Source of the DNA: Armatimonadota bacterium
Lineage (GTDB): Bacteria > Armatimonadota > HRBIN16
Assembly: GCA_040289885.1 (NCBI GenBank)
Contig: PSLZ01000005.1
Span: 26,598-90,597 of the forward strand
Direction: 5' to 3'
Length of the DNA stretch: 64,000 bases
Below are positions 13,085 through 63,759 of the stretch, piece after piece. A program made the translations under genes and the position numbers. Every line of letters begins with the position of its first letter. Positions within the stretch are counted from its first letter, which is position 1. The notes below the pieces were generated by a model. It had not been told where the DNA came from. It worked only from the letters and a program-made list of their open reading frames with translations, and did no database searches.

Positions 13085-15070
13085 ATGCAGAAATCCAGTT
13101 CCGAACCCAGATGGCAAACAGCAACCGCCAAAGCCTTTCATCTGCACGAATGGACGTTCAGCCTCCAGCCATCGGGCAACCCCTTCTCCCCCGCTGACAA
13201 CGACATCACCGCGGAGATTCGCCTGCCAACAGGGGAGACGATACGTCAGCCCGCCTTCTGGGATGGCGATAACACGTGGAAGGTACGGTTGGCTCTGCTT
13301 CGCTCCGGTCGTATCCATTGGAGACTGCTAAAGAACGGCTCCCCGCTGTCGGTGTCGGCGTGGGTGGAAGTGAAACCGATATCGTCACAAGCGACATTGG
13401 GCTTCGTTCGCCGGCACCCTCGCCTCAAGCAGTTTACCACCGACGCCGGCAAAACCTTCTATCCGATCGGGCAGAACGTCGGGTGGAGAACGCCGAGCAC
13501 CGACTACCCCCTCTTCTTCGAGCAGATGTCACAAGCGGGCATGAACTGGGCGCGGATATGGCTGTGCCATTGGGACGGTAAGAACCCGGACTGGGTCATG
13601 AGCAAGCGGATGGAACCCGGCTGGCTGGATATGGAGGTCATTCGTCGCCTCGAGAAGATCGTGCACCTCGCGGAAAGGTTCGGTATTTATATCCAGCTCA
13701 CCCTCCAGCATCACGGACAATACTCCACCCGCACCAACCCGAACTGGGCAGAGAACCCCTGGAACAAGCAGCACGGAGGCTTTCTCGACACCCCCGAACA
13801 GTTCTTCACCCATCCTCGCGCCCTGGAGCTCACGCGCCACAAGTACCGCTACCTCGTTGCGCGATGGGGATACTCCCCGCATCTCATGGCATGGGAACTC
13901 TTTAATGAGGTGGAGTGGACCGATGCTGCTGCCAACGGTAAATGGGATGTTATCGCCCAGTGGCACCGCGAGATGGCACGCTTCCTCCGCTCAATAGACG
14001 TGCATCAACATCTGATAACCACCAGCTCTGCCATGGATGTTCCCAGCCTGTGGGTGGAGATGGACTACTACCAGCCCCATTATTACGTGCCGGATATCGC
14101 GGGCACGCTGTTCGAAATGACACCTGCGCGGAGGAATAAACCCATCTTCATCGGCGAGTGGGGTGGTGCGAACCCGCGACAGTGGGGCGATGAAGCCTTC
14201 CTTCGACAGGGACTGTGGGTCGGCGTGATGCGCGGACTGGCGGGAGGGGCGCAGTGGTGGTCCTGGGAAACCACCGAAGCACGCAAGTGGTACGCCCAGT
14301 GGGCATCCCTATCGCAGTTCTTGAAGATGGCGGGCTTTGTTTCCGGGAATCTCTGGCAGCCCATCTCCGCACAGGTGATGTCGAAGGCACGTGCGCCGTT
14401 CCGCTTCTCGCCGGGGGGCGGATGGGAAAGCACACAGCGGTACCGCTTCATCGTGCCAACCGATGGCTCCGCTATCGAGGGATTATCGCTCCTCTCGCGG
14501 TTCATACAGGGCGAGTCGCACCGCGACATGTGTCGGGAGCCTGTGGTGTTCGAAGTGGAGTTCGCACAGGCTGGAAGATGCACGCTACATATCGGCACGG
14601 TTGCCCGTAGCGGCGCTGGCATTATTGTCAGGCTGGACAACGAGATAGTCGCCCAGGAACGGTTCTCCTCCGCACAACGGGATACCTTCGTGAACCGTGA
14701 GATCACCTTCCCTGTGCCAGCAGGCAAGCATACGATTTCCGTCTGCAACCCAGGACCCGACTGGTTTACACTGGACAGCGTGACGCTGACGCCCTACGCA
14801 CCGCCAAACAAGGTCGCCGTTTGTGGAGATGGACAAAACGCCATGTGGTATCTGTGGCGCGAGCAACCGGTGGACGCGTCGGTCACGTTGAAGATACCGA
14901 GTACTCCACCGGGAAGATATAAGGTTACGTGGTGGAACCCTTCCACTGGCAGAGCGATACACACCGAGACCGTAGCGGTGGCACAAGGAGGATTAGCGCT
15001 GAAGGTTCCCGTGCACGAGCGGGACATCGCCGGCTGTTTGAGCCCTGCGGGGCGCCGAGCCAGCCTGTAA
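13085..15070 (+). CDS. glycoside hydrolase family 5 protein (DUF5060-like N-terminus + GH5 catalytic domain)
   Basis: 661 aa; GH5 catalytic acid/base motif WELFNEVE; RBS GAGGAA; 3' end overlaps the rnpB 3' end by ~20 nt. Confidence 0.75.
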   Translation: MQKSSSEPRWQTATAKAFHLHEWTFSLQPSGNPFSPADNDITAEIRLPTGETIRQPAFWDGDNTWKVRLALLRSGRIHWRLLKNGSPLSVSAWVEVKPISSQATLGFVRRHPRLKQFTTDAGKTFYPIGQNVGWRTPSTDYPLFFEQMSQAGMNWARIWLCHWDGKNPDWVMSKRMEPGWLDMEVIRRLEKIVHLAERFGIYIQLTLQHHGQYSTRTNPNWAENPWNKQHGGFLDTPEQFFTHPRALELTRHKYRYLVARWGYSPHLMAWELFNEVEWTDAAANGKWDVIAQWHREMARFLRSIDVHQHLITTSSAMDVPSLWVEMDYYQPHYYVPDIAGTLFEMTPARRNKPIFIGEWGGANPRQWGDEAFLRQGLWVGVMRGLAGGAQWWSWETTEARKWYAQWASLSQFLKMAGFVSGNLWQPISAQVMSKARAPFRFSPGGGWESTQRYRFIVPTDGSAIEGLSLLSRFIQGESHRDMCREPVVFEVEFAQAGRCTLHIGTVARSGAGIIVRLDNEIVAQERFSSAQRDTFVNREITFPVPAGKHTISVCNPGPDWFTLDSVTLTPYAPPNKVAVCGDGQNAMWYLWREQPVDASVTLKIPSTPPGRYKVTWWNPSTGRAIHTETVAVAQGGLALKVPVHERDIAGCLSPAGRRASL

Positions 15071-15430
15071 GCGGGGTTCTGTGCCCTGCCTGTAAAGGGC
15101 AGGCGGCGGCTATCTCTCTGGGGTGCCGGTTACCCGGCACCTCTAGCGGCTGTACCCGGAGGCTCAGCGGGCCACCTCACGGCCTCCCTATTCAGCCTTG
15201 CTCCCGATGGGGTTTGCCCTGCCAGCGGCATCACTGCCGCTGCGGTGCGCTCTTACCGCGCCTTTTCACCCTTGCCCGCATTCAGCAAACGCTGAACCGC
15301 TGGCGGTGTGTTTTCTGTGGCACTTTCCGTAGGGTCGCCCCTCCCGGACGCTATCCGGCATCGTGCCCTGCGGAGCCCCGACTTTCCTCCCCACCCAAAC
15401 GGGCGAGGCAGCCGCCCGGCTGGCTCGGTG
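15050..15430 (-). ncRNA. rnpB: RNase P RNA, bacterial type A
   Basis: Minus strand reads GAGCCAGCC...GGGAGGAAAGUCGGGGCUCCGCAGGGCACGAUGCCGGAUAGCGUCCGGG...AGAAAACACACCGCC...GGCAAGGGUGAAAAGGCGCGGUAAGAGCGCACCGCAGCGG...GGGCACAGAACCCCGCUUACAGGCUGGCUC, matching universal P4/P10-12/P15/P18 core blocks of E. coli M1 RNA; P1 helix GAGCCAGCC/GGCUGGCUC; -10 TATAAT at 15440-15445 (minus). Confidence 0.9.
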
Positions 15431-17499: not shown

Positions 17500-18783
17500 T
17501 TACTCACCATCCTGCTGATACGCCCGATACAGCAATTCCACAGGATGCATGATGGCTATCGGGTGAGGAAGAGAACGCAAGCCCTGCGCGATCCAAGCGA
17601 GACAGCCGGGGTTGCCGGTCAAAAGTATTTCCGCACCCGTTGCCCGAACGCGCTCCACCTTGCGCTGTAGCAGACGCAGTGCTATGTCCGGCTGTAACAG
17701 GTTGTAGATGCCCGCACTCCCACAGCACATGTCCGATTCGTCCAGATCGACCAGCCTTACGCCCGGGATACTGCGGATGACCTCGCGAGGTTGCCGACGC
17801 ACCCCTTGACCGTGCGCCAGATGACAGGCATCGTGATAGGTTACTACCAGCTCCGGCGTCCCCTCTTGCCCGCCCAACGGTTGCTTCGGCACCTCGAAGC
17901 CTGCCTCTACCAGAAACTCCATAACGTCTCTTACTTTCGCCGCGAAGGCTCGCGCCTGCACTTCGTAGGGTGTGCCTGCGAACAGCCTGCCATAGCCTTT
18001 CATGGCGGAGCCACATCCCGCCGAGTTGACGATGACCGCATCTACCGAGACGCGCCCGAAACACTCCATAAGGCGCAACGCCCGCCATCGCCCCGCCTCC
18101 GGAAAGCCATTATGCAGATGCAACGCCCCACAACACCCTTGTTCACGCGGCACTACCACCTCGTAGCCGTTGCGCTGTAGCACGGCAACGGTCGCCACGT
18201 TTACCTCGTGAAACAACACCGACGCCACACAACCCGTGAGCACGCCCACTCTGCCCCGCCGTTCCCCCATCGGCGGATACACCCCAACAAGCCTGCGCGG
18301 ATTCGCACCACGGGGCACCTGCGGCAGATTAGCCACCACCTTCTCCACACCCAGCAGCCGCGCCAACGGCGCAGGTAGCGCCTTGTCGCCGAAGAACGGA
18401 GACAACCTCCGACCGATATGAATGGCGAACGCGAAAGCGCGAGGCTGTGTCATCACATCCAGAAGCCACTTCTTCACGGTGCGCTGAACACCCGAACGCG
18501 ACGGCGACCGCTCCACCTGCGCCCGCGCAATCTCAATCAGCAAGCCATATGCCACCCCCGACGGACACGCGGTCTCACAAGCTAGGCACCCAAGACACCG
18601 GTCTACATGTTCGACCGCACCTGCCTGCCACTGGATGCGCCCTTCGGCCACCGCCCGCATCAGGTAGATACGCCCGCGCGGCGAATCGGCTTCACTGCCA
18701 TCCTCGACGTAAGTGGGACAAGACTGCAGGCACAAACCGCAATGGATGCATTTCAGCAGGTCCTCACTGCGAAACTCGCGCAT
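17500..18783 (-). CDS. glcF: (Fe-S)-binding protein, glycolate oxidase iron-sulfur subunit GlcF-like
   Basis: Two 4Fe-4S ferredoxin motifs (CIHCGLCLQSCPTY; CLGCLACETACPSG) followed by two CCG cysteine-rich domains; ATG overlaps stop of upstream gene (ATGA). Confidence 0.85.
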   Translation of the reverse strand: MREFRSEDLLKCIHCGLCLQSCPTYVEDGSEADSPRGRIYLMRAVAEGRIQWQAGAVEHVDRCLGCLACETACPSGVAYGLLIEIARAQVERSPSRSGVQRTVKKWLLDVMTQPRAFAFAIHIGRRLSPFFGDKALPAPLARLLGVEKVVANLPQVPRGANPRRLVGVYPPMGERRGRVGVLTGCVASVLFHEVNVATVAVLQRNGYEVVVPREQGCCGALHLHNGFPEAGRWRALRLMECFGRVSVDAVIVNSAGCGSAMKGYGRLFAGTPYEVQARAFAAKVRDVMEFLVEAGFEVPKQPLGGQEGTPELVVTYHDACHLAHGQGVRRQPREVIRSIPGVRLVDLDESDMCCGSAGIYNLLQPDIALRLLQRKVERVRATGAEILLTGNPGCLAWIAQGLRSLPHPIAIMHPVELLYRAYQQDGE

Positions 18784-20018
18784 CACAAGCCCTCCACAAA
18801 CCTGCCCGGCGCCAATATCCGATGCGGGTCAAACCTCTCCTTGAGCCGCCGCATGACGCTCGCCCCGCCGCTGACGGAGTCCCATACATCTATCTCCTGC
18901 TTCACCGCCACAGGCGCACGTTCCAGCACACCGAATCCCCCTCGCGCACGAGCCTGTGCCCGCAGCTCCCGCAACGCCTGTCCATCGGGCACGTTCTCTG
19001 TCCACCACACCCGGACGATGCCCGTGCTAAAATGCGCCTGTAGACTCGCTTGGGGAAACCGTTCGTGCGCCCATACCAGTATCTCTGGCGTCTGCGCGGG
19101 CGGCACCACGAGACGGCAACCGCAGATGGGGTTGGCAAGTAGGTAGCGGTCGCGCAACCAGTTTACCTCCTCAGACGCAACCGGCGTCCACTCGGTCGGA
19201 ACGCGCTCTTGCAGCAGGTTCGTCTGCCAGCGCACGTCCTCTTCAAACCCCGCCAATCCAACATACAGATGCCACCCGGAATCCGCACTATAGACCACCT
19301 CTACCATTTCCGCCTGCAGTAGCGGGTGGCTCAGGGCATCGTACAGGTGGAAAAGGGTGCGTACCTCGGTGAAGGACGAGCGGACCACCACGGCAACCTC
19401 CGGCAGAGGAGCCACCTTAAAGGTCAGCTCCACCAAAACGCCAAGAGTGCCCCACGAACCGGCGAACAGGCGAGGCAAATCGTAACCGGCAACGTTTTTT
19501 ACCACGCCTACCCCCGCCTTGATCATCTCCCCGGACGGAAGAACGGCACGCACCGCCAGCAACCACTCGCGCGCCAAGCCGTAGCGGTGACGCCTCGGTC
19601 CTGCCCCACCCGAAGCCACGATGCCTCCAACCGTCTGCACAGCGGGCAGAGGAGCGTCAATGGGTAGCCATTGCTGATACGGCTGAAGCAGATTCTGCAG
19701 AGCCTCCAGGGTCATCCCCGCCTCGACGGTGACCACGAGGTCACCCGGCGAGTAGTCTCTGAGACGGGAGAGAGCCCGCATGTCCATCGCCCACAGATAC
19801 TGCTCCATGGGCGAGCCGATGGGGACGTGTGTTCCGCCACCCCACACCACGCCGGGCGCGCGATGGGTGCAACACACCTTCAGCACGGCGCACACCTCCT
19901 CCGCCGATGCGGGCTCGACGACCACCTGCGGGACACAGCCGTCTAGCGCGTACGCCGTGCACGCTTCGCCCATGCCGACGTTTGAGACCGCTTGCAGGTC
20001 CTGAATGATGTCTGGCAT
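18783..20018 (-). CDS. FAD-binding oxidoreductase, GlcD/GlcE family (glycolate oxidase FAD-binding subunit-like)
   Basis: FAD-binding PCMH-type domain; start placed at MPDIIQDLQ (ORF-track N-terminal 36 aa derive from an AT-rich repeat element and look spurious); -10 TATAAT 11 nt upstream of ATG suggests a near-leaderless transcript. Confidence 0.75.
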   Translation of the reverse strand: MPDIIQDLQAVSNVGMGEACTAYALDGCVPQVVVEPASAEEVCAVLKVCCTHRAPGVVWGGGTHVPIGSPMEQYLWAMDMRALSRLRDYSPGDLVVTVEAGMTLEALQNLLQPYQQWLPIDAPLPAVQTVGGIVASGGAGPRRHRYGLAREWLLAVRAVLPSGEMIKAGVGVVKNVAGYDLPRLFAGSWGTLGVLVELTFKVAPLPEVAVVVRSSFTEVRTLFHLYDALSHPLLQAEMVEVVYSADSGWHLYVGLAGFEEDVRWQTNLLQERVPTEWTPVASEEVNWLRDRYLLANPICGCRLVVPPAQTPEILVWAHERFPQASLQAHFSTGIVRVWWTENVPDGQALRELRAQARARGGFGVLERAPVAVKQEIDVWDSVSGGASVMRRLKERFDPHRILAPGRFVEGL

Positions 20019-20082
20019 AGTATCCGCATTATAAACGAAGCGCGCCCTCGTGCGCAAGTGTAGGCTTATATCATTTCTGAGA

Positions 20083-20218
20083 TGATTATTTTTGTCATTA
20101 TGCTGTTTATCGTCGTTCTGACTCACTTCTTCCCGTCATTCCGAGCTTCTCTCTTGTCATTCTGAGCGAAGCGAAGAATCTCAACCGAGATGCAGAACTA
20201 CGTTCATCATGACAAAAA
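20083..20218. repeat. MITE/REP-like element, copy A: degenerate GTCATTCYGAGC direct repeats, full unit tgtcattctgagcgaagcgaagaatctcaaccgagatgc, terminal inverted repeats atttttgtcat / atgacaaaaa
   Basis: AT-richer island in a high-GC intergenic region; 39-nt core shared almost exactly with loci at 28924, 31996 (reverse) and 63691 (reverse, partial). Confidence 0.7.
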
Positions 20219-20344
20219 CTGAATATCCAGTGCCATAATGTGGAACATCGTCGCTGGATACGGTGTCCCTATGTGATAGACAGGGCGGGCAAAACCAACA
20301 AAGCCATACCTACCCAGAAGCAAACCGATTGAGGAGGATCGAGA

Positions 20345-21850
20345 ATGCGACTGGCACGAGAAACATGGCTCTTGCTGGCTGTGGGATTAGCAGACCTTGC
20401 GAGCATCATCTATCTTGTGCGAAACGAACTGGTACACGAAGCCAACCCCGTGATGACTTGGTATTTGATCCACTTCGGCGTGTGGGCTTTCTGCGCCGCG
20501 AAGACCCTCATGCTGGTTTGTCCGGTGGTCATCCTAGAGTGGGTGCGCCTGTTCAAACCGTACCTAGGGCGATGGGCACTGCGTATCGCACTCCTGGGTT
20601 ATGTTACCCTCTACCTCGCCGTCGTGTGGCGGGCGAACGAGGCGCATTTCCAGCGACTGCTCAGTCCTTACCTGCCTCGCTTCAGCTGGTCCCAACGTGC
20701 AAAGCCATCGGCGTCCATGTGTCCAGCCGTTCCCCAGCCGATGGGTGATGCCCATAGACTAGCAGGATTCCCTCCCCTCGGCACGAAAGCAATAATCAAA
20801 ACCAGCGGGAGGGATGAACCCGTGCGAACGGCTTGGCAACTGAATCTGGTAGCGGTAGCGCTCCTGTGTCTGTTCAGCGCATGCGGCAAGAAGCAAACGG
20901 GCACGGCAGGCATCGGCACCACAACCGGCGGAGCGAAGCTGGTTGTCGCGGTGATGCCCAAACTGAAAGGCATTGATTACTTTAACGCAGTGGAGCGAGG
21001 CGCCAAAGAAGCGGCGCAGGAACTCGGAAATATTGACCTCACCTACGACGGACCCACCGAGGGCAAGGCCGACCTGCAGATACCCTTCATCGAAAGCTGG
21101 ACCCTGCAGAAGGTGAACGTGATCGCGGTTGCCTGCAACGACCCCGACGCCATCTCCCCTGCCCTCAAACGCGCTCGCGAGAAAGGCGTTCACGTCATTA
21201 CCTACGACGCCGATGCTAACGCCGAAAAGTCGGGACGTGAGTTCTTCGTGAACCAGGCAACCTTCGAAGACATCGGGCGCGCGCTGGTGGACGAAATGGC
21301 TTCGCAGGCAGGTGCCGAGGCAAAAGTAGCCATCGTCAGCTCTTCACCCACTGCGCCCAACCAGAACGCCTGGATCGCGGTGATGAAGCGCTATATGGCG
21401 GAAAAGTACCCGAAGATGCAGATAGTGACCATCCAGTACCCCGAAGAGGACCAGGGACGTGCCTTCAGCATGACGCAGGACATCCTCAAAACCTACCCGG
21501 ATGTGAAAGGCGTGTTTGGGCTCTCTTCCGTGGCATTCCCGGGCGCTGCCGACGCGGTGCGCCAGGCGGGCAAGAGCGGTAAGGTGGCGGTGGTGGGGCT
21601 GTCCACCCCCAAGAGCATGAAGGAGTTCGTCAAAGACGGCACGGTGAAGACGGTCATCCTATGGAACCCAGTGGACCTGGGTTACCTGACCGTGTATGTG
21701 GCGAAGGCGGTCGCGGAAGGCACACTGAAGCCGGGCGCCACCGAGTTTGAAGCGGGCAGGTTAGGCAAGGTCAAGGTGGAAGGAGACCAGGTCCTGCTGG
21801 GACCACCGATGCAGTTCACGCGCGAGAACATCGACCAGTATGACTTCTGA
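20345..21850 (+). CDS. sugar ABC transporter substrate-binding protein (CUT2, RhaS/LsrB/RbsB-like) with N-terminal DUF5658-like membrane domain in the same frame; lipoprotein form likely starts at GTG 20822
   Basis: Strong RBS GAGGAGG before ATG 20345; residues 1-100 hydrophobic with E-A-N-P motif (DUF5658-like); internal lipoprotein signal VRTAWQLNLVAVALLCLFSAC (lipobox LFSAC) preceded by GGGAGGG; remainder is a Peripla_BP_4-type SBP. Confidence 0.75.
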   Translation: MRLARETWLLLAVGLADLASIIYLVRNELVHEANPVMTWYLIHFGVWAFCAAKTLMLVCPVVILEWVRLFKPYLGRWALRIALLGYVTLYLAVVWRANEAHFQRLLSPYLPRFSWSQRAKPSASMCPAVPQPMGDAHRLAGFPPLGTKAIIKTSGRDEPVRTAWQLNLVAVALLCLFSACGKKQTGTAGIGTTTGGAKLVVAVMPKLKGIDYFNAVERGAKEAAQELGNIDLTYDGPTEGKADLQIPFIESWTLQKVNVIAVACNDPDAISPALKRAREKGVHVITYDADANAEKSGREFFVNQATFEDIGRALVDEMASQAGAEAKVAIVSSSPTAPNQNAWIAVMKRYMAEKYPKMQIVTIQYPEEDQGRAFSMTQDILKTYPDVKGVFGLSSVAFPGAADAVRQAGKSGKVAVVGLSTPKSMKEFVKDGTVKTVILWNPVDLGYLTVYVAKAVAEGTLKPGATEFEAGRLGKVKVEGDQVLLGPPMQFTRENIDQYDF

Positions 21851-22811
21851 ACGTATTCCCCCCACCCGTTTCGCACCCTGGCGCCACTACGGGCGTGAAA
21901 TGAGTGTGGGGGTGTTTCTGTTGCTGTTGCTGGCATATTTTGGCACGACGCCCGGTTTCCTGCAGGCGAGCAACCTGCGTGACATGCTCATCAACGCGTC
22001 GCCGCTAGTCATCGCCGCCTGCGGGATGACGATGCTCATTATCGCGGGCATGATCGACATCTCGGCGGGCTCTGCGCTGGCAGTGTGTGCGGTGACGGCG
22101 GGGGTGACTGCCAAATCGGGCGCGCCGTTCGTCTGGATGATACTCCTTCCTATCCTAGCGGGCGCGACCATCGGCGCGGTGAACGGCTGGCTGGTGGCTT
22201 ATGGACGCATCCCGGCAATTATCGTCACGCTGGGCATGATGAGCGTCCTGCGCGGCGGGATCATCTGGTACACGCGCGGCGAGTGGATCGGCAACCTTCC
22301 GCCCTCCTTCTCGGCGGTGGGACGTGGTCACCTGCTCGGCATTCCTGCTCCCGTGCTGATCGCCATCGGCGTGGTGACGGTTACCGCCCTCCTGCTAGCT
22401 CGCACTCCACTCGGTGGCCACATCTACGCCATCGGAGGCAATCCGCTCGCCGCCACACGCATGGGCATCCCCGTCCGCCGGACGCTATGGCTGGTGTTCG
22501 TCATGCATGGCGCCCTGTTGGGGCTGTCCGCGCTGGTGTATGCTTCAAGGTTCAGCGTCATCCAGAGCAACGCCGGCGCAGGGTTTGAACTGCTCGTCAT
22601 CAGCGCGGTGGTGGTAGGCGGGGTGAACATCTTCGGAGGACAGGGCACGGTGTGGGGCAGTGCCATCGGCGGATTACTCTTGCAGGTCATCAGCACTGGG
22701 CTGATCTTCCGCCGCGTCTCCGAGTACTGGGCGCCAAGCGTACAGGGTGCTCTCGTTCTGCTGGCGGTAATGGCAGACGCCCTGCGCACACCACGGAGGG
22801 TGAAACGGTGA
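21840..22811 (+). CDS. sugar ABC transporter permease (BPD_transp_2, RbsC/RhaP-like)
   Basis: 323 aa, ~10 TM; GMIDISAGSALAVCAV motif; overlaps SBP stop. Confidence 0.85.
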   Translation: MTSERIPPTRFAPWRHYGREMSVGVFLLLLLAYFGTTPGFLQASNLRDMLINASPLVIAACGMTMLIIAGMIDISAGSALAVCAVTAGVTAKSGAPFVWMILLPILAGATIGAVNGWLVAYGRIPAIIVTLGMMSVLRGGIIWYTRGEWIGNLPPSFSAVGRGHLLGIPAPVLIAIGVVTVTALLLARTPLGGHIYAIGGNPLAATRMGIPVRRTLWLVFVMHGALLGLSALVYASRFSVIQSNAGAGFELLVISAVVVGGVNIFGGQGTVWGSAIGGLLLQVISTGLIFRRVSEYWAPSVQGALVLLAVMADALRTPRRVKR

Positions 22812-23746
22812 GAATCCGACTGCCACGCCGCGAGGTGATCTTGATCCTTCTGCTGTTGGTGGAGATGGCGGTGCTTCAGTCCCTCTCGCCCCTCTTCCTC
22901 ACTCCCGACAACCTGCTGGAGGTGGTTCGCCAGTCCGCCGAGATCGGGCTGATCGCCCTAGCGATGACACTGGTCATCATCACCGCTGGGATAGACCTGT
23001 CGGTCGGTTCCATCGTCGGGCTGAGCATCATGGCGATGGGCATGTTGTGGGAGGATGCACACCTCTCCCTATGGGTTGCCGTGCCGCTCGCTCTGCTAAC
23101 CGGTGCACTCTGCGGTGCACTCAACGGCACATTGATTACATCGGTGGGCATTCCCCCTCTCATCGTGACGCTGGCGACCATGGCGGGCTTTCGTGGCGTC
23201 GCCTTGGGCATGAGTCAAGCGCGTTCCATCCGCAACTTCCCTGAAGGGTTCCTGTGGCTCGGTCAGGGCTACATCGCGGATGTTCCCGTGCAGGTGTGGA
23301 TATTGGCGATCGCCGCGGTGGGGTTCCACCTTGCCCTAACGCGCACCGCGTGGGGGCGGTCGGTGTTCGGCATCGGCGCGAACGAGCCTGCAGCGCGGCT
23401 CTCCGGCGTGCCGGTGCACCGGGTCAAACTGCAGGTGTACGCGCTATCGGGCTTCATGAGTGCACTGTCCGCGGTCATCTACGCCGCACACGTATCGGTC
23501 GCCAAGCCTGATGCCGGGCTGGGCTTCGAGCTCACAGCGATTACGGCGGTGGTGTTGGGCGGGACCGCCGTCTCCGGCGGCGAGGGGGGCGTACTGGGAA
23601 CCTTAATCGCGCTGTTGATGGTGGGTTTCCTACGCAGTGGGTTAACCCTGGCGCGCGTGCCCTCGGAAGCTCAGGATATGATGGTAGGGCTACTACTGCT
23701 CATCGTGGTTGCCATAGACCGTTGGAGCCGTGCCGGCAGAGAGTAA
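22808..23746 (+). CDS. sugar ABC transporter permease (BPD_transp_2, RbsC/RhaQ-like)
   Basis: GTG 22808 overlaps upstream stop (GTGA); GIDLSVGSIVGLSIMAMG motif; ORF-track N-terminal extension is spurious. Confidence 0.8.
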   Translation: MRIRLPRREVILILLLLVEMAVLQSLSPLFLTPDNLLEVVRQSAEIGLIALAMTLVIITAGIDLSVGSIVGLSIMAMGMLWEDAHLSLWVAVPLALLTGALCGALNGTLITSVGIPPLIVTLATMAGFRGVALGMSQARSIRNFPEGFLWLGQGYIADVPVQVWILAIAAVGFHLALTRTAWGRSVFGIGANEPAARLSGVPVHRVKLQVYALSGFMSALSAVIYAAHVSVAKPDAGLGFELTAITAVVLGGTAVSGGEGGVLGTLIALLMVGFLRSGLTLARVPSEAQDMMVGLLLLIVVAIDRWSRAGRE

Positions 23747-23813
23747 CCTCCAACGTTTCCCCCTTCCTTCGCCATATGGTATAATGGCAACGACGCCAAA
23801 CCGGAGAATCGAG

Positions 23814-24533
23814 ATGAAAATCCCTCTCATCGGTATCACCACGGGCTACGAACAGCACGGGGAAGCCGTCGCCGAGCTAGCCAAACGCTACGTAGACGCG
23901 GTAGTGCGGGCAGGCGGCGCGCCCGTCGTGCTCCCTCCCGCCGACCTCCGCCTCGTTCAACGATACGCCGAGATGCTGGACGGACTAATCGTTAGCGGAG
24001 GCAAGGACATCCCTCCCTCCCTCTACGGCGAGGCGACACACCCACAGACCGACGCCCTCTCGGAGGAGCGACCGCTGTTCGAAATCCAGCTGGTTCGTCT
24101 CCTGCGTGACAGAGACACACCCGTGCTGGGCATCTGTTATGGCTGTCAACTGCTGAACGTGGCGTTCGGGGGCACGCTAATCCAGGATCTTCCCTCACAG
24201 GTGCAACCCCCCCTCCAGCACCGCCGAACCTCCTCGGCAGAACCTCATGCTCGTCATCGCGTAACCCTTCGTGAAGGAAGCCTTTTGCGACAGATCTTAG
24301 GTAGGAACGAGGTGGAAATCGTCAGTTCGCACCATCAGGCGGTTAAACAGCCCGCATCTTGCTTCAAAATAACCGCCACCGCGCCGGATGGCGTCATCGA
24401 AGCTATCGAGGTGGAGGATGCGCGCTTTTTCGTCGGGGTACAATGGCATCCGGAAATGGGCCCTGAGGCGGAGGCAACGCACGCGCTACTGCACGCCTTT
24501 ATTCGCGCCGCTTCAGAACGCATCAAACCCTAA
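23814..24533 (+). CDS. gamma-glutamyl-gamma-aminobutyrate hydrolase family protein (class I glutamine amidotransferase, peptidase C26)
   Basis: MKIPLIGITTGYE...VLGICYGCQLLNVAFGG (catalytic Cys)...HH; extended -10 TGgTATAAT at 23778-23786. Confidence 0.75.
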   Translation: MKIPLIGITTGYEQHGEAVAELAKRYVDAVVRAGGAPVVLPPADLRLVQRYAEMLDGLIVSGGKDIPPSLYGEATHPQTDALSEERPLFEIQLVRLLRDRDTPVLGICYGCQLLNVAFGGTLIQDLPSQVQPPLQHRRTSSAEPHARHRVTLREGSLLRQILGRNEVEIVSSHHQAVKQPASCFKITATAPDGVIEAIEVEDARFFVGVQWHPEMGPEAEATHALLHAFIRAASERIKP

Positions 24534-24545
24534 GGAGGCACCACG

Positions 24546-25214
24546 ATGTTCCGACGTTTGGCTTTTACATTGATCGAAATGCTGGTCGTTATCGCCATCA
24601 TCGCCCTGCTGGCAGGACTGCTGTTTCCCGTGTTTTCGCGTGCCCGCGCCAAGGGGTGTGAAACCGCCTGCCTGTCCAACATTCGGCAAATCGGTATGGC
24701 CATCATGATGTACGCCGAAGACTACGATGAGCGCTATCCGTGGGCGGTTGACGCTACCGACCGCTACACGCCCCAAATCTGGAACGACTATCCCCAGTGG
24801 CAGCAGTGGATTCCCTACATGCCCATGCTCCACGAGGTCCTGCAACCCTACTGCCGCAGTGCCGAGCTGTGGCGATGCCCATCGGACTTCGGCTACGTGT
24901 ATCAGGACTTTAACTGCGAACTGCTGGATGCCACGCCCTCTTCCTACCAGAAGTTCGGCACCAGCTACGTGTTCCGCACCGAAATCGCCTTCCGGCAGAT
25001 GATGCTTTCGGGCTTCCAGTACCCCTCCGAAGTGAACGTCATCATGGACAGTAGCGGGGCGTGGCACGGCAGTGAAGGGATCATGCGCACGCGAGCCGAA
25101 TGCTTTGATAGCCGATTCTACCGCGGCTACCGTTACAACGTGCTGTTCGGCGATGGACATGCTAAGAACGTCAACTACTTTGATCTGGACAAAGCGTGGA
25201 ACGTGCCGTTATGA
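24546..25214 (+). CDS. prepilin-type N-terminal cleavage/methylation domain protein, DUF1559 (H-x9-DG) family
   Basis: N-terminus MFRRLAFTLIEMLVVIAIIALLAGLLFPVF (class III signal peptide); C-terminus NVLFGDGHAKNV; RBS AAGGAGG. Confidence 0.8.
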   Translation: MFRRLAFTLIEMLVVIAIIALLAGLLFPVFSRARAKGCETACLSNIRQIGMAIMMYAEDYDERYPWAVDATDRYTPQIWNDYPQWQQWIPYMPMLHEVLQPYCRSAELWRCPSDFGYVYQDFNCELLDATPSSYQKFGTSYVFRTEIAFRQMMLSGFQYPSEVNVIMDSSGAWHGSEGIMRTRAECFDSRFYRGYRYNVLFGDGHAKNVNYFDLDKAWNVPL

Positions 25215-26554
25215 TTCTTCGGGCGGATTGGGTACTGCCGGTGGCTAATGACCCCATCGAAGACGGCGAGGTGGTCGTCCGCAATGGGGTCATTGTGGAT
25301 GTGCGCCGGCGTTCGGGCACGCGCGGCGGCGCGGATGTGCTGGACTTCGGCGAGGCGGTCATCCTGCCTGGGTTGGTGAATACTCACACGCATCTGGAAC
25401 TCACCGTCCTGCGCGGGGCGATAGAAGACCTCCCCTTCTTCGAATGGCTCCGCAAACTGGTGGATCTGAAGAAGATGCTGTCGGAGCAGGAGTGGCGCAA
25501 CTCCGCGCTCTGGGGCGCATTGGAAGCCGCGGCCTCGGGCATCACTACCCTCGCCGACACCACCGACACGGGTGCCTCCCTATACGCGATGGTTCAAGCG
25601 GGATTGCGTGGCAGGGTGTATCAGGAGGTCTTCGCGGTGGAGCCGGACACGGATGCCCCACAGACCCTGCGCACGCTGGAAGACAGGCTACAATGGCTTC
25701 GCCGCGCCTCGCAGGGCACGACGGTGGAGGTAGGCGTTGCGCCCCATACCCTCTACACGGTCCGCCCCGCCGTCCTGCAGGCTCTGCGCCACTATACCCG
25801 CGAGAAGGGCTACCCGGTGTGCATCCATGCCGGCGAATCCGCCGATGAAATCGCTCTGCTGGAAAAAGGCGAGGGCAAGTTCGCGCAGATGTACGCCCAG
25901 CGCGGAATCCCCTGGCAAGAAGAGGGTAAACATCCACTGGACATCCTGTACGAGCAGAGCTGGCTGGACGAACACACCCTGCTGGTGCACGGTGTGCATA
26001 CCGACTCGCACCACGCTGAACGGCTTGCCTCCACCCACACCGCTGTGGCCCATTGCCCGCAGTCCAACGCCAAGCTCTGCAACGGCATCGCCCCGCTCAG
26101 TGAGTGGCTCGCACAAGGTGTGACGGTAGGGCTAGGCACGGACAGCGTCGTTAGCAACAACACCATGGACCTGTTCGCGGAGATGCGCCTGGCGGTGACG
26201 CTTCAACGCGCGGTGCACGGCGTGGATTCGTGCCTAACAGCGCGCAAGGCGGTGGAGCTGGCAACCACGCGGGGAGCGCAGGCGCTAGGCATGGCGGAGC
26301 GCATTGGCACACTGGAAGCAGGCAAACAGGCGGACCTGTGCGTGGTCTCTCTGGCGGGCGTGCATGCGTTCCCCACCTACGACCCATATGCCGGTCTGGT
26401 CTTTTCGGCACGCGCTTCCGACGTCTTGATGACAATGGTAGGAGGCAAGGTGGTGTATCAACAAGGGCAATTTCCTCTGCTTCGCGAACCTGTTGCGACC
26501 CTGCGCGAGAGACTACGCTATACCGTCCGACGTATCCGAGAGGTTTTGCACTGA
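25211..26554 (+). CDS. amidohydrolase, MtaD/SsnA-like nucleoside deaminase (candidate aminodeoxyfutalosine deaminase / MTA-SAH deaminase)
   Basis: GLVNTHTHLELT metal-binding motif; amidohydrolase fold throughout; start ATG 25211 overlaps upstream stop. Confidence 0.7.
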   Translation: MILRADWVLPVANDPIEDGEVVVRNGVIVDVRRRSGTRGGADVLDFGEAVILPGLVNTHTHLELTVLRGAIEDLPFFEWLRKLVDLKKMLSEQEWRNSALWGALEAAASGITTLADTTDTGASLYAMVQAGLRGRVYQEVFAVEPDTDAPQTLRTLEDRLQWLRRASQGTTVEVGVAPHTLYTVRPAVLQALRHYTREKGYPVCIHAGESADEIALLEKGEGKFAQMYAQRGIPWQEEGKHPLDILYEQSWLDEHTLLVHGVHTDSHHAERLASTHTAVAHCPQSNAKLCNGIAPLSEWLAQGVTVGLGTDSVVSNNTMDLFAEMRLAVTLQRAVHGVDSCLTARKAVELATTRGAQALGMAERIGTLEAGKQADLCVVSLAGVHAFPTYDPYAGLVFSARASDVLMTMVGGKVVYQQGQFPLLREPVATLRERLRYTVRRIREVLH

Positions 26555-27186
26555 TGAATCTGGATAGCTATCGCCAGCAGTTATGTGAGCTGGGGCACTA
26601 TCTAGGCGCGCGTGGGCTAGCTTGGGGCACCTCAGGCAATATCAGCCTGCGCCTCGACGAGGAGCGGTTCCTCATCTCGGCATCGGGCGCGTGGCTTGGT
26701 AATCTCACGCCAGAGCAGACGACGCTCTGCTTCCTGCAGTCCGAGCAGGTCATCGGCACGAAGCCGTCGGTGGAAACCCCTATGCATCGCGCCATCTATC
26801 GCAACCGCCCCGACGCGCAGGTGGTGGTGCACGTCTCGCCTCCTTACACCACGCTTATCGCCTGCTCCAGCCTGCACATCCCGACCGACCTGAACATCGA
26901 AAATATCTTCTATCTGGGGCGAGTGGCTCGCGTGCCCTACATGCACCCCGGTACCCAGCCGTTGGCAGAGGCTGTAGGCGCCGCGGTGCGCGAGCACGAA
27001 ACGCTCATCCTCTCCAACCACGGCGCGATCACCTTTCACCAATCCATCCCCGACGTGCTGATGCGGGTGGAGTCGCTGGAGATGACCTGTCGGATAGTGA
27101 CGATGGCGCGCATGGCAAACATCCCGCTCAACCACCTGCCCGCCGAGGTCGCCGAAGCGCTTCGGAGCGGCTATCGCAGGTCATAG
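26554..27186 (+). CDS. class II aldolase/adducin family protein
   Basis: 210 aa starting MNLDSYRQQLCELG (ATG overlaps upstream TGA); GNISLR...HVSPPY...SNHGAITF motifs of class II aldolases; 3' end overlaps convergent mqnA by 16 nt. Confidence 0.7.
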   Translation: MNLDSYRQQLCELGHYLGARGLAWGTSGNISLRLDEERFLISASGAWLGNLTPEQTTLCFLQSEQVIGTKPSVETPMHRAIYRNRPDAQVVVHVSPPYTTLIACSSLHIPTDLNIENIFYLGRVARVPYMHPGTQPLAEAVGAAVREHETLILSNHGAITFHQSIPDVLMRVESLEMTCRIVTMARMANIPLNHLPAEVAEALRSGYRRS

Positions 27187-27941
27187 ACCAGCCCCAGCTT
27201 GCGGCACTCCTCCTGAAACCGCGCCAGAGCCTCTTCGTGCGCCGGAGTCATCTGGTACTGCATGATGTCGCACAGGTAGTGCCGCACGAGGTGCTCCTCT
27301 GCTCCCAGCCGGGCGGTCTCCACCCGTATCACCTGGCCGATGTGCTCCAGTCCCCAAGCGCGCGCGGTTACCAGCACTTCCACCAGCCGCGGATGAAGAT
27401 GCTCCCGTCTGCCCAGCCATAACGCCCACACGAACGGCAGACCGGTCCAGTTGAACCATTCCTCGCCCAAATCGAACACGTACAGCCCCTCCGCCCGCGC
27501 CAGCATCCCTTTGTCTCCGATCAAAAGGGCGGAATCGGCTCTGTTCAGCATCGCCTGCAGGTCGGGCGCAGCAGGGATATACTCCGGCTTCCTCTGCCAC
27601 CAACGCGCGAACAGCACCTGCACCAGCGCGGAGGAGGTCAGCGAGCTGGTATCCAGCGCAACCGAACGCACCTTGTCCAGAGGAACCTTGCAAAACAGGC
27701 GCACGCTCAGCACCTTGCCCGTGCTCGCAATGGCGATGTCGGCAACGACTCCCCAGTCGGGATGGCGAAACAGTTCGATGGAGGAAACCAGCGCGCACGT
27801 CAGGTCACCCTTTCGGACCAGCCGCGCCAGCTGTGAGGGCACATCGGTAACCACTTCTACGCCGCTCTCCCTGCCCGCCGGCGAACAAAACCAGGCGGTC
27901 AACGGACTTGCGTTCAAATAGGGCACACTGCCAATCCGCAT
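27171..27941 (-). CDS. mqnA: menaquinone biosynthesis protein MqnA/MqnD family (futalosine pathway; likely chorismate dehydratase MqnA)
   Basis: MRIGSVPYLNASPL N-terminal signature; RBS GGAGG 5 nt before ATG 27941; tightly coupled to upstream prenyltransferase gene. Confidence 0.65.
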   Translation of the reverse strand: MRIGSVPYLNASPLTAWFCSPAGRESGVEVVTDVPSQLARLVRKGDLTCALVSSIELFRHPDWGVVADIAIASTGKVLSVRLFCKVPLDKVRSVALDTSSLTSSALVQVLFARWWQRKPEYIPAAPDLQAMLNRADSALLIGDKGMLARAEGLYVFDLGEEWFNWTGLPFVWALWLGRREHLHPRLVEVLVTARAWGLEHIGQVIRVETARLGAEEHLVRHYLCDIMQYQMTPAHEEALARFQEECRKLGLVYDLR

Positions 27942-27943
27942 CT

Positions 27944-28816: not shown

Positions 28817-28923
28817 GCCTCTCCCCGTTGCGCTTTTTTGTCCACCGCATAGGACAACCCTGCTCATCGCAATCCTACCGCCGCCATCCGAAGCGCCAGG
28901 GGCTACCACTCTAAGCCCCCTCT

Positions 28924-29022
28924 TGTCATTCTGAGCGAAGCGAAGAATCCCAACCGAGATGCTTCGCTGGCGCTCAGCATGACAACAACGACGTCATTCG
29001 GAGCCGCGAGGCGAAGAAGCCC
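28924..29022. repeat. MITE/REP-like element, copy B: tgtcattctgagcgaagcgaagaatcccaaccgagatgcttcgctggcgctcagcatgaca hairpin unit plus partial unit gtcattcggagccgcgaggcgaagaagccc
   Basis: Palindromic arms TGTCAT..CTGAGC..GAAGC / GCTTC..CTCAG..ATGACA; intergenic between mqnP start and next gene. Confidence 0.7.
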
Positions 29023-29124
29023 TTATCATCGGGCACCACTATGCTCATTATACCCCTGAACCGTTCCCTTTGCCCTCGTATTTAGGTATACTAAATACAT
29101 CTGACGTGACGGAGGTGACACCAC

Positions 29125-29763: not shown

Positions 29764-29769
29764 GTCTCT

Positions 29770-29970
29770 ATGAGTGAAGGCAAACCGGTCAGACGTATCC
29801 TCTGCCCGCGCTGTCGCCTGTACGATTCCGGGCGGCGACGGTGCCGTGTCGGCAAGGTGAACCCGCGCACCCGGCTGGATACCTACGAAACCGCGCAGGT
29901 GCTGGGTGTGCGGGCGATCTGCTCCTTCAACTTGTATCGCGACCAGATGCTCTCCCCCCCCAGTACATGA
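29770..29970 (+). CDS. small Arg/Cys-rich hypothetical protein (CxxC...C)
   Basis: 66-aa ORF 6 nt after upstream stop; CPRCRLYDSGRRRCRVGK; no clear RBS. Confidence 0.3.
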   Translation: MSEGKPVRRILCPRCRLYDSGRRRCRVGKVNPRTRLDTYETAQVLGVRAICSFNLYRDQMLSPPST

Positions 29971-30057
29971 AGGAAGCGCCGATAGGCAGTTCTCACTGAC
30001 GCACGGCGCTTCACTGTCTCAATTCTTGTGGTGGTGGCGGTTTGGCGTCCCCTGCGG

Positions 30058-30091
30058 TGCGCGCACCGCAGGGGTTTGGTTGTCACTTACG
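30058..30091. terminator. strong GC palindrome terminator (13-bp stem)
   Basis: cccctgcggtgcg|cgcaccgcagggg followed by TTTGGTTG; between convergent genes. Confidence 0.7.
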
Positions 30092-30836: not shown

Positions 30837-30895
30837 CTTTCTCTTGCTCCTCCTTCACTTGATATTTTGGTTAGGGCTGCGAGTCCCTTCTCCAA

Positions 30896-31950: not shown

Positions 31951-32125
31951 GTCATGCCGAGAAGCGTCGCCGTGATCATGCTGAGCATCAGCGAAGCATC
32001 TCGGTTGGGGTTCTTCGCTCCGCTCAGAATGACAGAGAGAGACTCACAATGACAAGAAGAGATGGCGCAGAATGATAGGGAAAAAGCAGTGCAGAATGAC
32101 GGGGAAACGAATGACAGAACGAGAA
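31951..32125. repeat. MITE/REP-like element, copy C (reverse orientation) followed by 5 degenerate ~20-bp tandem repeats of CAGAATGAC
   Basis: gcatctcggttggggttcttcgctccgctcagaatgaca (reverse complement of the GTCATTCTGAGC core), then cagaatgacagagagagact / cacaatgacaagaagag / cagaatgataggg / cagaatgacgggg / cgaatgacagaacg. Confidence 0.7.
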
Positions 32126-63690: not shown

Positions 63691-63738
63691 GGGATTCTTC
63701 GCTGCGCTCAGAATGACACCAAACGTCATGCCGAAAGC
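63691..63738. repeat. MITE/REP-like element, copy D (partial, reverse orientation)
   Basis: gggattcttcgctgcgctcagaatgaca + cgtcatgccgaaagc; intergenic. Confidence 0.6.
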
Positions 63739-63759
63739 CAGCTCTGCATCTACCGCTCC

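Follow-up and report, generated by a model that had tools for sequence, protein, structure and literature searches.

The window analysed here, a 64-kb stretch of DNA from an Armatimonadota MAG, carries a short palindromic repeat scattered between its genes, which raises the question of what kind of element it is and which enzyme might act on it. The recurrent unit is 25-26 nt long (TGTCATTCTGAGCGNAGCGAAGAATC) and lies at four intergenic loci (copies A to D), one of them a still intact inverted pair of 61 nt and the other three decayed.

Repeat copies in the window

A sequence-only reading of this stretch had proposed a dispersed, intergenic, REP-like palindromic repeat with a 39-nt core at four loci. 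The 39-mer was recovered exactly on the + strand at 20155-20193 and 28924-28962 and with 2 mismatches on the - strand at 31996-32034, a 28-nt part of it lies on the - strand at 63691-63718 (copy D), and no shuffle of the window contained a match. All four loci were therefore as proposed, except that the 39-mer of copy A starts at 20155 rather than 20153. The sequence GTCATTCTGAGC, with at most 1 mismatch, occurs 7 times in the window versus 0.32 expected, and copies B and C match at 89% across 70 nt (28924-28993 and 31965-32034). The parts of the four copies are:

Copy A, 20093-20105, 20111-20123 and 20134-20146, + strand: head array of 3 half-units (tag and 5' arm), upstream of the full unit
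Copy A, 20155..20180, + strand: full REP unit with a TGTC tag, the hairpin ATTCT-GA-GC-GAA-GC-GA-AGAAT and then C; an exact match that passes the general architecture test
Copy A, 20181..20214, + strand: tail or spacer (T/CCAACCGAGATGC) and eroded partner unit, which survives solely as the terminal ATGACA at 20209-20214
Copy B, 28924..28949, + strand: left REP unit, stem triplet TCT/AGA
Copy B, 28958..28984, - strand: right REP unit of a second subtype (TGTCATGCTGAGCGCCAGCGAAGCATC), stem triplet GCT/AGC
Adjoining copy B, 28992..29019, + strand: degenerate extra unit (CGTCATTCGGAGCCGCGAGGCGAAGAAG), head-to-head with the right unit
Copy C, 31950-31965, + strand: half-unit preceding the partner unit (CGTCATGCCGAGAAGC)
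Copy C, 31973..32000, + strand: partner unit with a mutated tag, TGATCAT for TGTCAT
Copy C, 32009..32034, - strand: full REP unit with a GAGCGGAGCGA loop, ending AACC, which leaves an A.C mismatch in the closing stem
Copy C, 32042-32054, 32065-32077, 32089-32101 and 32105-32116, - strand: head array of 4 half-units outside the full unit (the + strand reads ..CAxAATGAyA)
Copy D, 63628-63639, + strand: eroded partner, remnant GTCATCCCGTGC
Copy D, 63693..63718, - strand: full REP unit with a GAGCGCAGCGA loop
Beside copy D, 63724..63739, + strand: half-unit-like CGTCATGCCGAAAGCC, head-to-head with copy D, read by eye and absent from the motif-search list

Copy B (28924-28984) is the sole intact inverted pair in the window, a heterodimer with its tags pointing outward. 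Tandem arrays of 5' half-units are present at two of the four loci, copies A and C, where direct repeats had already been noted and where we located 3 and 4 half-units, respectively. Successive starts in the copy A array, counting the full unit as the last, are 18, 23 and 21 nt apart, with pyrimidine-rich spacers. The head search recovered the two inner half-units of this array, about 44 and 21 nt ahead of the full unit, and the outermost one (20093-20105) was read from the sequence, as was the copy C array, two of whose four half-units (offsets -20 and -67) were also recovered by the head search. The terminal inverted repeats previously ascribed to copy A (TTTTTGTCAT and ATGACAAAAA) do exist, but one is simply the half-unit lying farthest out and the other what is left of the head of the eroded partner.

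In the sister assemblies copies B, C and D are identical to those of the window and copy A differs by one base, position 20181, which is T in the window and C in the sisters. Presence/absence polymorphism between strains was sought among these assemblies, whose near-identity means that they carry no information on insertion sites. Assemblies break inside copies B and D, and public Logan contigs end inside copy D; such breaks are expected of a repeat that is multi-copy in this genome.

The four loci are intergenic by public gene calls with one exception, a 447-aa glcE-like call that starts at GTG 20126, inside the copy A array. Since the Pfam domain begins at residue 30 of the 411-aa version of this gene, which starts at ATG, the N-terminal extension of the longer call is probably spurious, in agreement with the sequence-only reading.

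Unit anatomy and distribution

Each unit is made up of an unpaired T/C-GTC tag, a hairpin that opens with A-T and T-A and continues with 3 covarying pairs, and an invariant C directly after the stem, whose interior holds tandem sheared G.A/A.G followed by a GC-GNA-GC mini-hairpin with a GNA triloop. The unit can be written as TGTCATYCTGAGCGNAGCGAAGRATC or TGTCATCCTGAGCGNAGCGAAGGATCTT, as units starting TGTCATYCTGAGCG..., and as TGTCATNNNGAG...ATC. Across 157 units, positions 6 and 22 are Watson-Crick paired in 151 (C-G in 94, T-A in 57), any base can fill the triloop N (C 64, A 54, G 21, T 18), and GTC is preceded by T in 132 and by C in 16; each of the four full units in the window carries the tag TGTCAT. 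All units end in ...AGAAT-C or ...AGCAT-C, with a cytosine right after the palindrome. Among 109 distinct units drawn from loci selected by protein only, which use at least 8 different triplet pairs, the stem triplets are perfectly complementary in 99, versus a mean of 26.8 and a maximum of 42 on permutation.

Folded as single-stranded DNA, copy B reaches a dG of -22.3 kcal/mol (z = -6.3), which none of 200 shuffles equalled, bearing out the hairpin earlier drawn there. Copies A and C fold weakly (z about -2; -2.1 for A), and copy D shows no significant fold against shuffles in the same single-stranded DNA folding. A single unit is likewise weak under nearest-neighbour folding (dG -1.9, z -0.9), so that the support for the small hairpin comes from covariation, without help from predicted energy. 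DNA mini-hairpins of the form d(GCGNAGC), with a GNA triloop, are a known structural motif in the biophysical literature. The centre of every unit is of this kind, GC-GNA-GC with N free, although the motif is a structural one rather than a genetic element and its stability is missed by the nearest-neighbour folding used here.

Genomes carry the exact 25-mer in at least 120 stretches, with some 16 phyla among the matches listed, and IMG/VR carries it in at least 120 stretches. Armatimonadota, Acidobacteriota, Chloroflexota, Bacillota and Patescibacteria are all among the hosts; many of the genome matches are MAGs, in which some phylum assignments could be binning errors, and the matches listed also include isolates of Hymenobacter, Mucilaginibacter and Edaphobacter. 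The repeat is one sequence type of an intergenic, hairpin-forming repeat known from at least sixteen phyla. It had been supposed to be genome-specific, a claim that this distribution overturns. In the literature, the sequence itself (GAGCGAAGCGAAG, GTCATCCTGAGC) turned up only as chance primer matches.

An inverted partner head lies at most 250 nt away in 105 of the 157 units, usually with the tags of the pair outward. The 86 distinct inverted pairs, with a median length of 87 nt, enclose locus-specific spacers devoid of conservation, and single units and half-unit arrays are common across the family. With its dispersed intergenic copies of 60-140 nt and its inverted repeats of about 26 nt at the ends, the element resembles a conventional MITE left by a DDE transposon through cut-and-paste mobility, and it had been called MITE-like. 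However, target-site duplications of 2-9 nt were not above expectation in 75 pairs at three boundary offsets, and their absence largely refutes the DDE interpretation; the unconserved spacers, the frequency of single units and half-unit arrays, and the lack of a recurrent transposase in the flanks also speak against it, leaving it hardly tenable. Indeed, all-against-all clustering of 3,873 ORFs from 120 loci selected by the REP yielded only housekeeping families as recurrent neighbours (kinases, ABC ATPases, FabI) and no transposase, the neighbouring genes being unrelated from locus to locus.

Linkage to Ssn-family GIY-YIG genes

In two of the 120 REP-selected genome loci, L026 (Gracilibacteria) and L089 (Hymenobacter glaciei), the repeat tightly flanks a gene for a GIY-YIG protein. 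Repeats and an ssn gene also occur together on plasmid p1 of Planktothrix agardhii No.66. To measure this linkage, we used 80 metagenomic loci picked solely for encoding an Ssn-like protein. The 25-mer type (at most 4 mismatches) lies within 400 nt of the gene in 37 of the 80 loci, on both sides in 23, at a density of 1.23 per kb near the gene versus 0.044 per kb far from it. Because the query protein P0001 ends in a C-terminal tail encoded by the REP, selection bias could have inflated this count; with the 20 affected loci dropped and only repeats outside the protein match counted, the type is still near the gene in 22 of 60 loci, at 0.93 versus 0.033 per kb. The enrichment near Ssn-like genes is thus 24-28x. 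The more general architecture (tag, 5-bp stem and C) is found in 70 of the 80 loci, on both sides of the gene in 48, at 3.46 versus 0.33 per kb, and its commonest layout is REP(+)-gene-REP(-) (24/48). The 120 IMG/VR loci with the 25-mer have no ssn-like ORF, which is neutral for the linkage, neither helping nor hurting it.

The proteins encoded by the linked genes are about 95 aa long and single-domain, and over their full length show 35-47% identity with the SsnA orthologue of the gonococcus, which has copies of the NTS repeat on its own flanks; BLASTP against this orthologue gave E 2e-20 at 40% identity. PF01541 is the sole domain above the Pfam cut-off (two proteins), save that one also scores 22.0 bits against T5orf172 (cut-off 20). 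Y6, Y17 and E64, mutation of which kills SsnA, are invariant in an alignment of the REP-linked proteins. The gene that co-localises with the repeat is therefore a predicted small single-domain GIY-YIG nuclease of the Ssn family.

SsnA is a 94-aa GIY-YIG nuclease that binds and cuts the NTS hairpin CGTCATTCCCGCGMAVGCGGGAATCYRG as single-stranded DNA only, leaving RNA and duplex DNA unbound (Chenal et al., Nat Commun 2025, PMC11893778). The characterised members of its family, from Neisseria and Wolbachia, act on such hairpins in single-stranded form only and place the cut a few nucleotides 5' of the tag. In NTS, binding depends critically on the C that follows the palindrome and cleavage on the three bases upstream of the palindrome, and the Neisseria layout is NTS-ssnA-NTS (PMC11893778). 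The repeat described here resembles NTS and the wider class of Ssn-related motifs (SRMs) of that report in its (C/T)GTCAT 5' tag, its hairpin and its ATC ending with the critical C, as well as in its hundreds of dispersed copies and the placement of repeats on either side of a single-domain GIY-YIG gene of about 95 aa. It differs in its stem, which in NTS is a clean GC palindrome (ATTCCCGCG...CGCGGGAAT) and here is ATYCT-GA-GC-GNA-GC-GA-AGRAT, with tandem G.A and a triloop; in its hosts, which for SRMs are mainly Pseudomonadati and here also include the five phyla named above; and in its 5' half-unit arrays, which go without mention for NTS/SRM in the available part of PMC11893778.

The published SRM search string, HGTCWYN(0-2)YYVSBRHN(0-5)WNVSBRGN(0-2)RNCYNB, matches canonical NTS and none of the four window copies or of 153 instances of the repeat; it is a search heuristic derived from 29 genomes rather than a functional definition. 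Of the features that characterise SRMs, the repeat has the HGTCWY tag before the hairpin, a core capable of forming a hairpin (by covariation) and the C after the palindrome, and proximity to an Ssn gene is seen at the family level; a profile search at E up to 10 found no ssn-like ORF in the window and about 19 kb of extra flank. The data thus tie a distinct hairpin type with internal mismatches, which the published string misses, to Ssn-like genes at the family level.

The sequence-only reading had instead pointed to IS200/IS605 TnpA as the cognate enzyme. A REP/REPIN or palindromic MITE mobilised by such a Y1 (HUH) transposase, be it TnpA or a RAYT, would share the REPIN-like anatomy seen here (a hairpin with an unpaired 5' tag, inverted pairs that form a long hairpin, no target-site duplication), and Y1 enzymes likewise act on single-stranded hairpins (PMC6006769). 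The resemblance to GTAG REP/REPIN-RAYT systems extends to a short hairpin with an unpaired 5' tetranucleotide, inverted doublets, a single-copy cognate gene with repeats on either side and an activity on single-stranded DNA, which is predicted here. However, the tag is T/CGTC and not GT[AG]G, the gene in strong linkage encodes a GIY-YIG protein, predicted to be a hydrolytic nuclease rather than an enzyme with an HUH/Y1 covalent intermediate, and REPIN sequences are lineage-specific whereas the 25-mer is identical across phyla. A regex-level search of the window and the 120 flanking loci (834 kb) gave no HUH...Y ORF, and the survey by Di Nocera et al. (PMC3733652) recorded no RAYT with CGTC-type repeats on its flanks. 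Together these points make a Y1 enzyme very unlikely. The lone HUH...Y regex match was rejected as false, being a PHP-like protein. The RepRanger paper (PMC12306157) contains no mention of this repeat type or of Ssn.

Also close is the CGTC superfamily of repetitive extragenic palindromes (Di Nocera, De Gregorio and Rocco, BMC Genomics 2013, PMC3733652), whose families CGTC-1 to CGTC-4 include Neisseria dRS3 and Rickettsia RPE-4/6. Its hallmarks are a tag reading CGTC or, often, TGTC, a stem that begins with AT, a short tail, a mostly dimeric state and no RAYT. The repeat shares with it the unpaired tag and a stem of about 8-9 positions opening A-T, T-A (here TGTC + AT...AT + C(C/T)CA), the short unpaired tail (CCCA in copy B versus the family consensus CCA), the predominance of inverted dimers, heterodimers included, with variable spacers, and the lack of RAYT association. 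It differs in spanning about 16 phyla, against the 5 phyla, mostly Alphaproteobacteria, of the survey, and in the internal G.A mismatches of its stem and its loop of 3 rather than 4-5 nt. Set against the dimensions of CGTC-1 to CGTC-4 (stem 8-9 bp, loop 4-5 nt), the unit has 9 stem positions, two of them G.A, and a 3-nt loop. The unit can alternatively be counted as 8 stem positions with a 5-nt loop. By its sequence features the repeat is a member of the CGTC/TGTC-tagged REP superfamily.

Mode of action and wider significance

Regulation of adjacent genes offers another account, in which the repeat acts through transcription or RNA (as a terminator or mRNA-stabilising hairpin) or as double-stranded protein-binding 'iterons'. 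Its intergenic positions near gene starts and a half-unit period of about 21 bp, equal to two helical turns, would suit such a role. So would the family-wide preference for tandem and convergent gaps and avoidance of divergent ones (8 of 90 classifiable elements versus about 21-25% of gaps), as reported for other REPs (PMC3733652). Of the 4 window copies, 2 lie in divergent promoter regions, the under-represented class, which tells against the reading favoured below. A -35-like ATGACA is also present, paired with a -10 AATGAT on the minus strand (20098..20070) at a consensus match of 9/12. Against this account, Rfam at gathering thresholds over the whole window matched an RNase P RNA and a tRNA alone, and at E up to 10 on 19800-32400 gave nothing at the elements; no T-run follows the hairpin, neighbour genes are unrelated over 120 loci, the GNA triloop and tandem G.A are classic features of DNA mini-hairpins, and SsnA binds neither RNA nor duplex DNA (PMC11893778). 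Moreover, the array period ranges between 18 and 24 nt, and because young arrays in other genomes duplicate the spacer exactly, the half-unit arrays resemble tandem duplications more than binding sites kept by selection. We therefore regard a regulatory role of this kind as improbable.

In our view the repeat is, with good probability, a TGTC/CGTC-tagged REP of a sequence type that brackets Ssn GIY-YIG genes across bacteria, and the window holds scattered, gene-less copies of it. By analogy with NTS, the processing as single-stranded DNA implied by the sequence-only reading is likely. When the DNA becomes single-stranded, as lagging-strand template or as transforming or transferred DNA, a putative Ssn enzyme encoded elsewhere in the genome would bind the hairpin and then nick upstream of it. 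Short inverted pairs would be miniature derivatives of a REP-ssn-REP cassette, and effects on neighbour genes, such as the spurious ORF extension and the promoter-like hexamer, would be incidental.

A bolder extension, which we find possible but doubtful, is that REP-ssn-REP is a pan-bacterial, horizontally spreading cassette that moves via single-stranded DNA with a GIY-YIG nuclease, neither HUH nor DDE. Gene-less pairs such as copy B would then be non-autonomous miniatures, and the arrays and palindromic spacers scars of Ssn cutting and hairpin-templated repair. If true, this would explain the near-identity of the 25-mer and of the protein across phyla.

The CGTC/TGTC palindromes were catalogued in 2013 without an enzyme, and in 2025 their Neisseria NTS branch was tied to SsnA. 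The repeat and the Ssn-like proteins linked to it are candidate substrate/enzyme pairs for single-stranded-DNA tools, and the half-unit arrays offer a tangible way into the question of how such repeats arise. For annotation, the repeat is a recurrent cause of metagenome assembly breaks and, as had been anticipated for the window, repeatedly gives rise to spurious small ORFs and N-terminal extensions, with peptides such as CHSERSEES, VILSEAKNL and RFFASLRMT.

Repeat loci of the window

The element that recurs through the window belongs to a known kind, that of the CGTC/TGTC-tagged repetitive extragenic palindromes (REPs) and the Ssn-related motifs (SRMs), Ssn being a family of small GIY-YIG nucleases. 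The window repeat itself is a sequence type missed by the published definition of the SRM motif, and we found no description of it in the literature searched. Each unit consists of a TGTC or CGTC tag, a hairpin and a C; two inverted units form a pair, and a tag with only the 5' arm is a half-unit. The sequence-only reading had placed a 39-mer at four intergenic loci, all of which were recovered (gaps from public gene calls and Pfam):

Copy A, 20155-20193 (+): 39-mer TGTCATTCTGAGCGAAGCGAAGAATCYCAACCGAGATGC, between a glcE-like FAD protein (-) and a sugar-binding protein (+); left unit intact, right unit eroded
Copy B, 28924-28962 (+): 39-mer TGTCATTCTGAGCGAAGCGAAGAATCYCAACCGAGATGC, between a UbiA prenyltransferase (-) and a DUF1326 protein (+); both units intact
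Copy C, 31996-32034 (-): TGTCATTCTGAGCGAAGCGAAGAATCYCAACCGAGATGC with two mismatches, between a GT2 glycosyltransferase (+) and a GntR/LacI-type regulator (+); left unit counted intact with one stem mismatch, right unit with a mutated tag
Copy D, 63691-63718 (-): 28-nt portion of the 39-mer, upstream of a YegS/DAGK-like kinase (-); left unit intact, right unit eroded

Five of the eight potential units in these four pairs are therefore intact. Shuffled versions of the window gave zero matches to TGTCATTCTGAGCGAAGCGAAGAATCYCAACCGAGATGC, and the window has 7 occurrences of the 12-mer GTCATTCTGAGC at up to one mismatch, where 0.32 are expected. Copies B and C are 89% identical over 70 nt. The window has a T at 20181, in the tail of copy A, where three sister assemblies, including an ENA contig otherwise matching the window, have a C; with C at this position the 39-mers of copies A and B are identical. 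The hairpin proposed for copy B is borne out by its predicted single-stranded DNA fold (-22.3 kcal/mol, z = -6.3); for copies A and C the fold is marginal (z about -2), and for copy D it is not significant.

In the window, which exact matches of GroEL and an acyl-CoA ligase assign to an Armatimonadota MAG, the repeat occurs at roughly one locus per 20 kb, and about 19 kb of additional flank from sister assemblies contained no further copy. Independent Logan short-read contigs of the same population or samples have an end exactly within copy B (about 28959) or copy D (about 63722), L211, L213, L214 and L215 by their starts and L205 by its end, indicating that the repeat breaks assemblies in the manner of a multi-copy sequence. 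The four loci are orphan copies, with no ssn-like ORF detected in the window and its extensions by a profile search at E up to 10. A cognate Y1 transposase, which had been suggested as a thing to look for, left no signature in the window in a regex-level test.

A second, unrelated intergenic repeat of ~65 nt is present in three copies with 70-76% identity. Its 3' end, TGGTACGATTCTTGCA, is preceded by a conserved A/T-rich stretch and CCCCGTTTTTGG, and fits the sigma-54 promoter consensus, TGGCAC-N5-TTGCW. This repeat and two RNA genes of the window are located as follows:

30906-30970 (-): copy of the ~65-nt repeat
34920-34984 (+): copy of the ~65-nt repeat
59742-59801 (+): copy of the ~65-nt repeat
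15052-15427 (-): bacterial class A RNase P RNA, 293.7 bits
40982-41068 (+): tRNA-Ser(TGA), an ordinary RNA gene

Unit architecture, covariation and half-unit arrays

Aligned instances share a layout of tag, stem pairs A-T and T-A, three covarying pairs, tandem G.A/A.G, GC-GNA-GC and the C, followed by a short tail, in many cases TCA or CCA-like. The GTC of the tag is preceded by T in 132 of 157 units and by C in 16, and the variable base of the GNA loop is C in 64, A in 54, G in 21 and T in 18. Positions 6 and 22 form C-G in 94, T-A in 57 and a non-Watson-Crick combination in 6 (n=157). A second covariation test was independent of the search pattern, using units from loci selected by protein and anchored on conserved flanks: the stem triplets are perfectly complementary in 99 of 109 distinct units, compared to a permuted mean of 26.8 and maximum of 42, spanning TGC/GCA, CCT/AGG, TCT/AGA, GCT/AGC, CCC/GGG, TTC/GAA, ACT/AGT and TCC/GGA. 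Compensatory change thus maintains the hairpin.

An inverted partner head with tags facing outward lies within 250 nt of 105 of the 157 units. Over the 86 distinct pairs the median length is 87 nt; their inner part is locus-specific, yet often palindromic. No target-site duplication of 2-9 nt was found among 75 pairs. The copy B pair is a heterodimer of a TCT/AGA and a GCT/AGC unit, a combination also seen in loci from Thermoanaerobaculia, Anaerolineae and Ktedonobacterales.

Di Nocera et al. describe a REP superfamily with an unpaired CGTC tag, TGTC in many repeats, whose stems 'almost invariably' start with complementary A-T residues, which have short tails and mostly form inverted dimers, and which includes the Neisseria dRS3 and Rickettsia RPEs; unlike GTAG REPs, these are described there as being without an associated tyrosine transposase (PMC3733652). 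Chenal et al. report the Neisseria hairpin repeat NTS, CGTCATTCCCGCGMAVGCGGGAATCYRG, as the longer form of dRS3, in which binding by SsnA depends critically on the C that follows the palindrome, and cleavage on the three bases preceding the palindrome (PMC11893778). The window unit shares with NTS/SRM the tag, the A-T/T-A opening and the terminal ATC but differs in its stem, and the published SRM search string matches 0 of 153 instances of the window type.

The direct-repeat arrays noted beside copies A and C proved to be arrays of half-units, which accompany 25 of 145 instances in many phyla. They always lie on the tag side and never on the 3' side at comparable spacing, with a period of 18-24 nt made up of the tag and the 5' arm to GAG(C/T), then 6-10 nt; in young arrays the spacer is copied exactly. 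In a Planktothrix plasmid, pairs beside an ssn gene are flanked on each outer side by triple arrays. The arrays look like tandem duplications with the triloop base as their 3' boundary; they may be scars left by cutting and repair, or else provide alternative 5' arms for one 3' arm.

Linkage to Ssn-like genes

SsnA is a 94-aa single-domain GIY-YIG protein reported to bind and cut NTS solely as single-stranded DNA, a few nucleotides upstream of the tag; SRMs flank ssnA homologues in many bacteria, and the Neisseria system reduces transformation by NTS-flanked DNA (PMC11893778). In two of the 120 repeat-selected genome loci listed, of at least 120, the repeat closely flanks a small GIY-YIG ORF on both sides (L026, Gracilibacteria; L089, Hymenobacter glaciei), with PF01541 as the sole domain above the Pfam cut-off. 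The Ssn-like family is very large (7,997 of 8,000 scored candidate clusters at E up to 1e-5), and its best matches show 58-68% identity across phyla.

We then picked 80 metagenomic loci solely for encoding a relative, from a 29-member alignment. In 37 of them the gene has the window's 25-mer type (at most 4 mismatches) within 400 nt, in 23 on both sides, at 1.23 per kb near the gene versus 0.044 further away. Since a ranking bias could arise from the REP-encoded C-terminal tail of the first query, P0001, the count was repeated on 60 loci with a match ending before the tail, taking only repeats outside the match; the type was found in 22 (0.93 vs 0.033 per kb). In most remaining loci there are sister types built on the same plan, among them TGTCATTGCGAG...GAAGCAATC, TGTCACCCTGAGCGTAAGCGAAGGGTC and CGTCATTGCGGGCTTGACCCGCAATC. 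Under a general definition ([CT]GTC, 5-bp closing stem, loop, then C), a unit lies within 350 nt in 70 of the 80 loci, on both sides in 48 (3.46 per kb near vs 0.33 far). The commonest layout, unit(+)-gene-unit(-), in 24 of these 48, has the geometry of the gene-less pairs.

A gonococcal SsnA orthologue recovered by tblastn, on a chromosome filed as a plasmid, is a 94-aa ORF with canonical NTS copies on either side. It aligns over its full length with the repeat-linked proteins (35-47% identity, BLASTP E 2e-20), and Y6, Y17 and E64, mutation of which abolishes SsnA activity, are invariant between them. If a cell has a cognate Ssn enzyme, we infer that the intact window units would, when single-stranded, be nicked upstream. 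The REP-flanked ssn-like gene of Planktothrix agardhii plasmid p1 (L218, NZ_LR882964.1 18150-19816) is in a defence-island context, with a type IIL MmeI restriction-modification gene on one side and DISARM drmA on the other.

Effects on gene calls and distribution across bacteria

Public protein predictions absorb the repeat. The C-termini of the Ssn-like proteins P0001 and P0059 read ..RDSSLRSE or ..RDSSPSRGSE, and the N-terminus of a luciferase-like protein (L019) reads SFAALRMTGG, all translated REP units. In the window, the glcE-like FAD-binding protein (18783-20126, -) is called at 447 aa from a GTG inside the copy A half-unit array. Starting at the ATG at 20018, the protein has 411 aa and its Pfam domain begins at residue 30; the additional 36 or so codons of the 447-aa call are therefore probably an artefact of the repeat, as the sequence-only reading held. 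A promoter-like match in the window reaches 9/12. Such effects of the units on neighbouring genes, ORF extension and promoter-like match alike, would be side effects.

While the observations of that reading were confirmed, its interpretation held only in part, the repeat not being genome-specific: GTCATYCTGAGCGNAGCGAAGRAYC, searched for in one genome per species, matched at least 120 stretches from many bacterial groups. By record title, the matches listed include Acidobacteriota, Chloroflexota, Nitrospirota, Nitrospinota, Verrucomicrobiota, Planctomycetota, Bacteroidota, Ignavibacteria, Gemmatimonadota, Bdellovibrionota, Omnitrophota, Desulfovibrio, Alpha- and Gammaproteobacteria, Bacillota (Lachnospiraceae, Oscillospiraceae), Fibrobacter, Abditibacteriaceae, Saccharibacteria, Gracilibacteria and other Patescibacteria, the isolates among them being Hymenobacter spp., Mucilaginibacter and Edaphobacter aggregans. 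The exact 25-mer pattern also matched at least 120 IMG/VR stretches; the 120 listed (L219-L338, 1.06 Mb) encode no Ssn-like protein. The near-identity of both 25-mer and protein across phyla suggests horizontal spread of the cassette.

By crude gene calls, the family-wide gaps are tandem in 60, convergent in 22 and divergent in 8 cases, divergent gaps being under-represented (9% of elements vs 21-25% of gaps). The two divergent-gap copies of the window are thus atypical, but with four loci this carries no weight.

In seven loci (L017, L022, L081, L114, L008, L090, L111), with record titles of Acidobacteria/Acidobacteriota and Terriglobia and, for L114, Candidatus Saccharimonadales, a larger palindromic repeat, ..AACAGGCTGCGGAAAAAC .. 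GTTTTTCCGCAGCCTGTT.., encloses the REP pair; this nesting suggests preferential insertion of one repeat family into the other.
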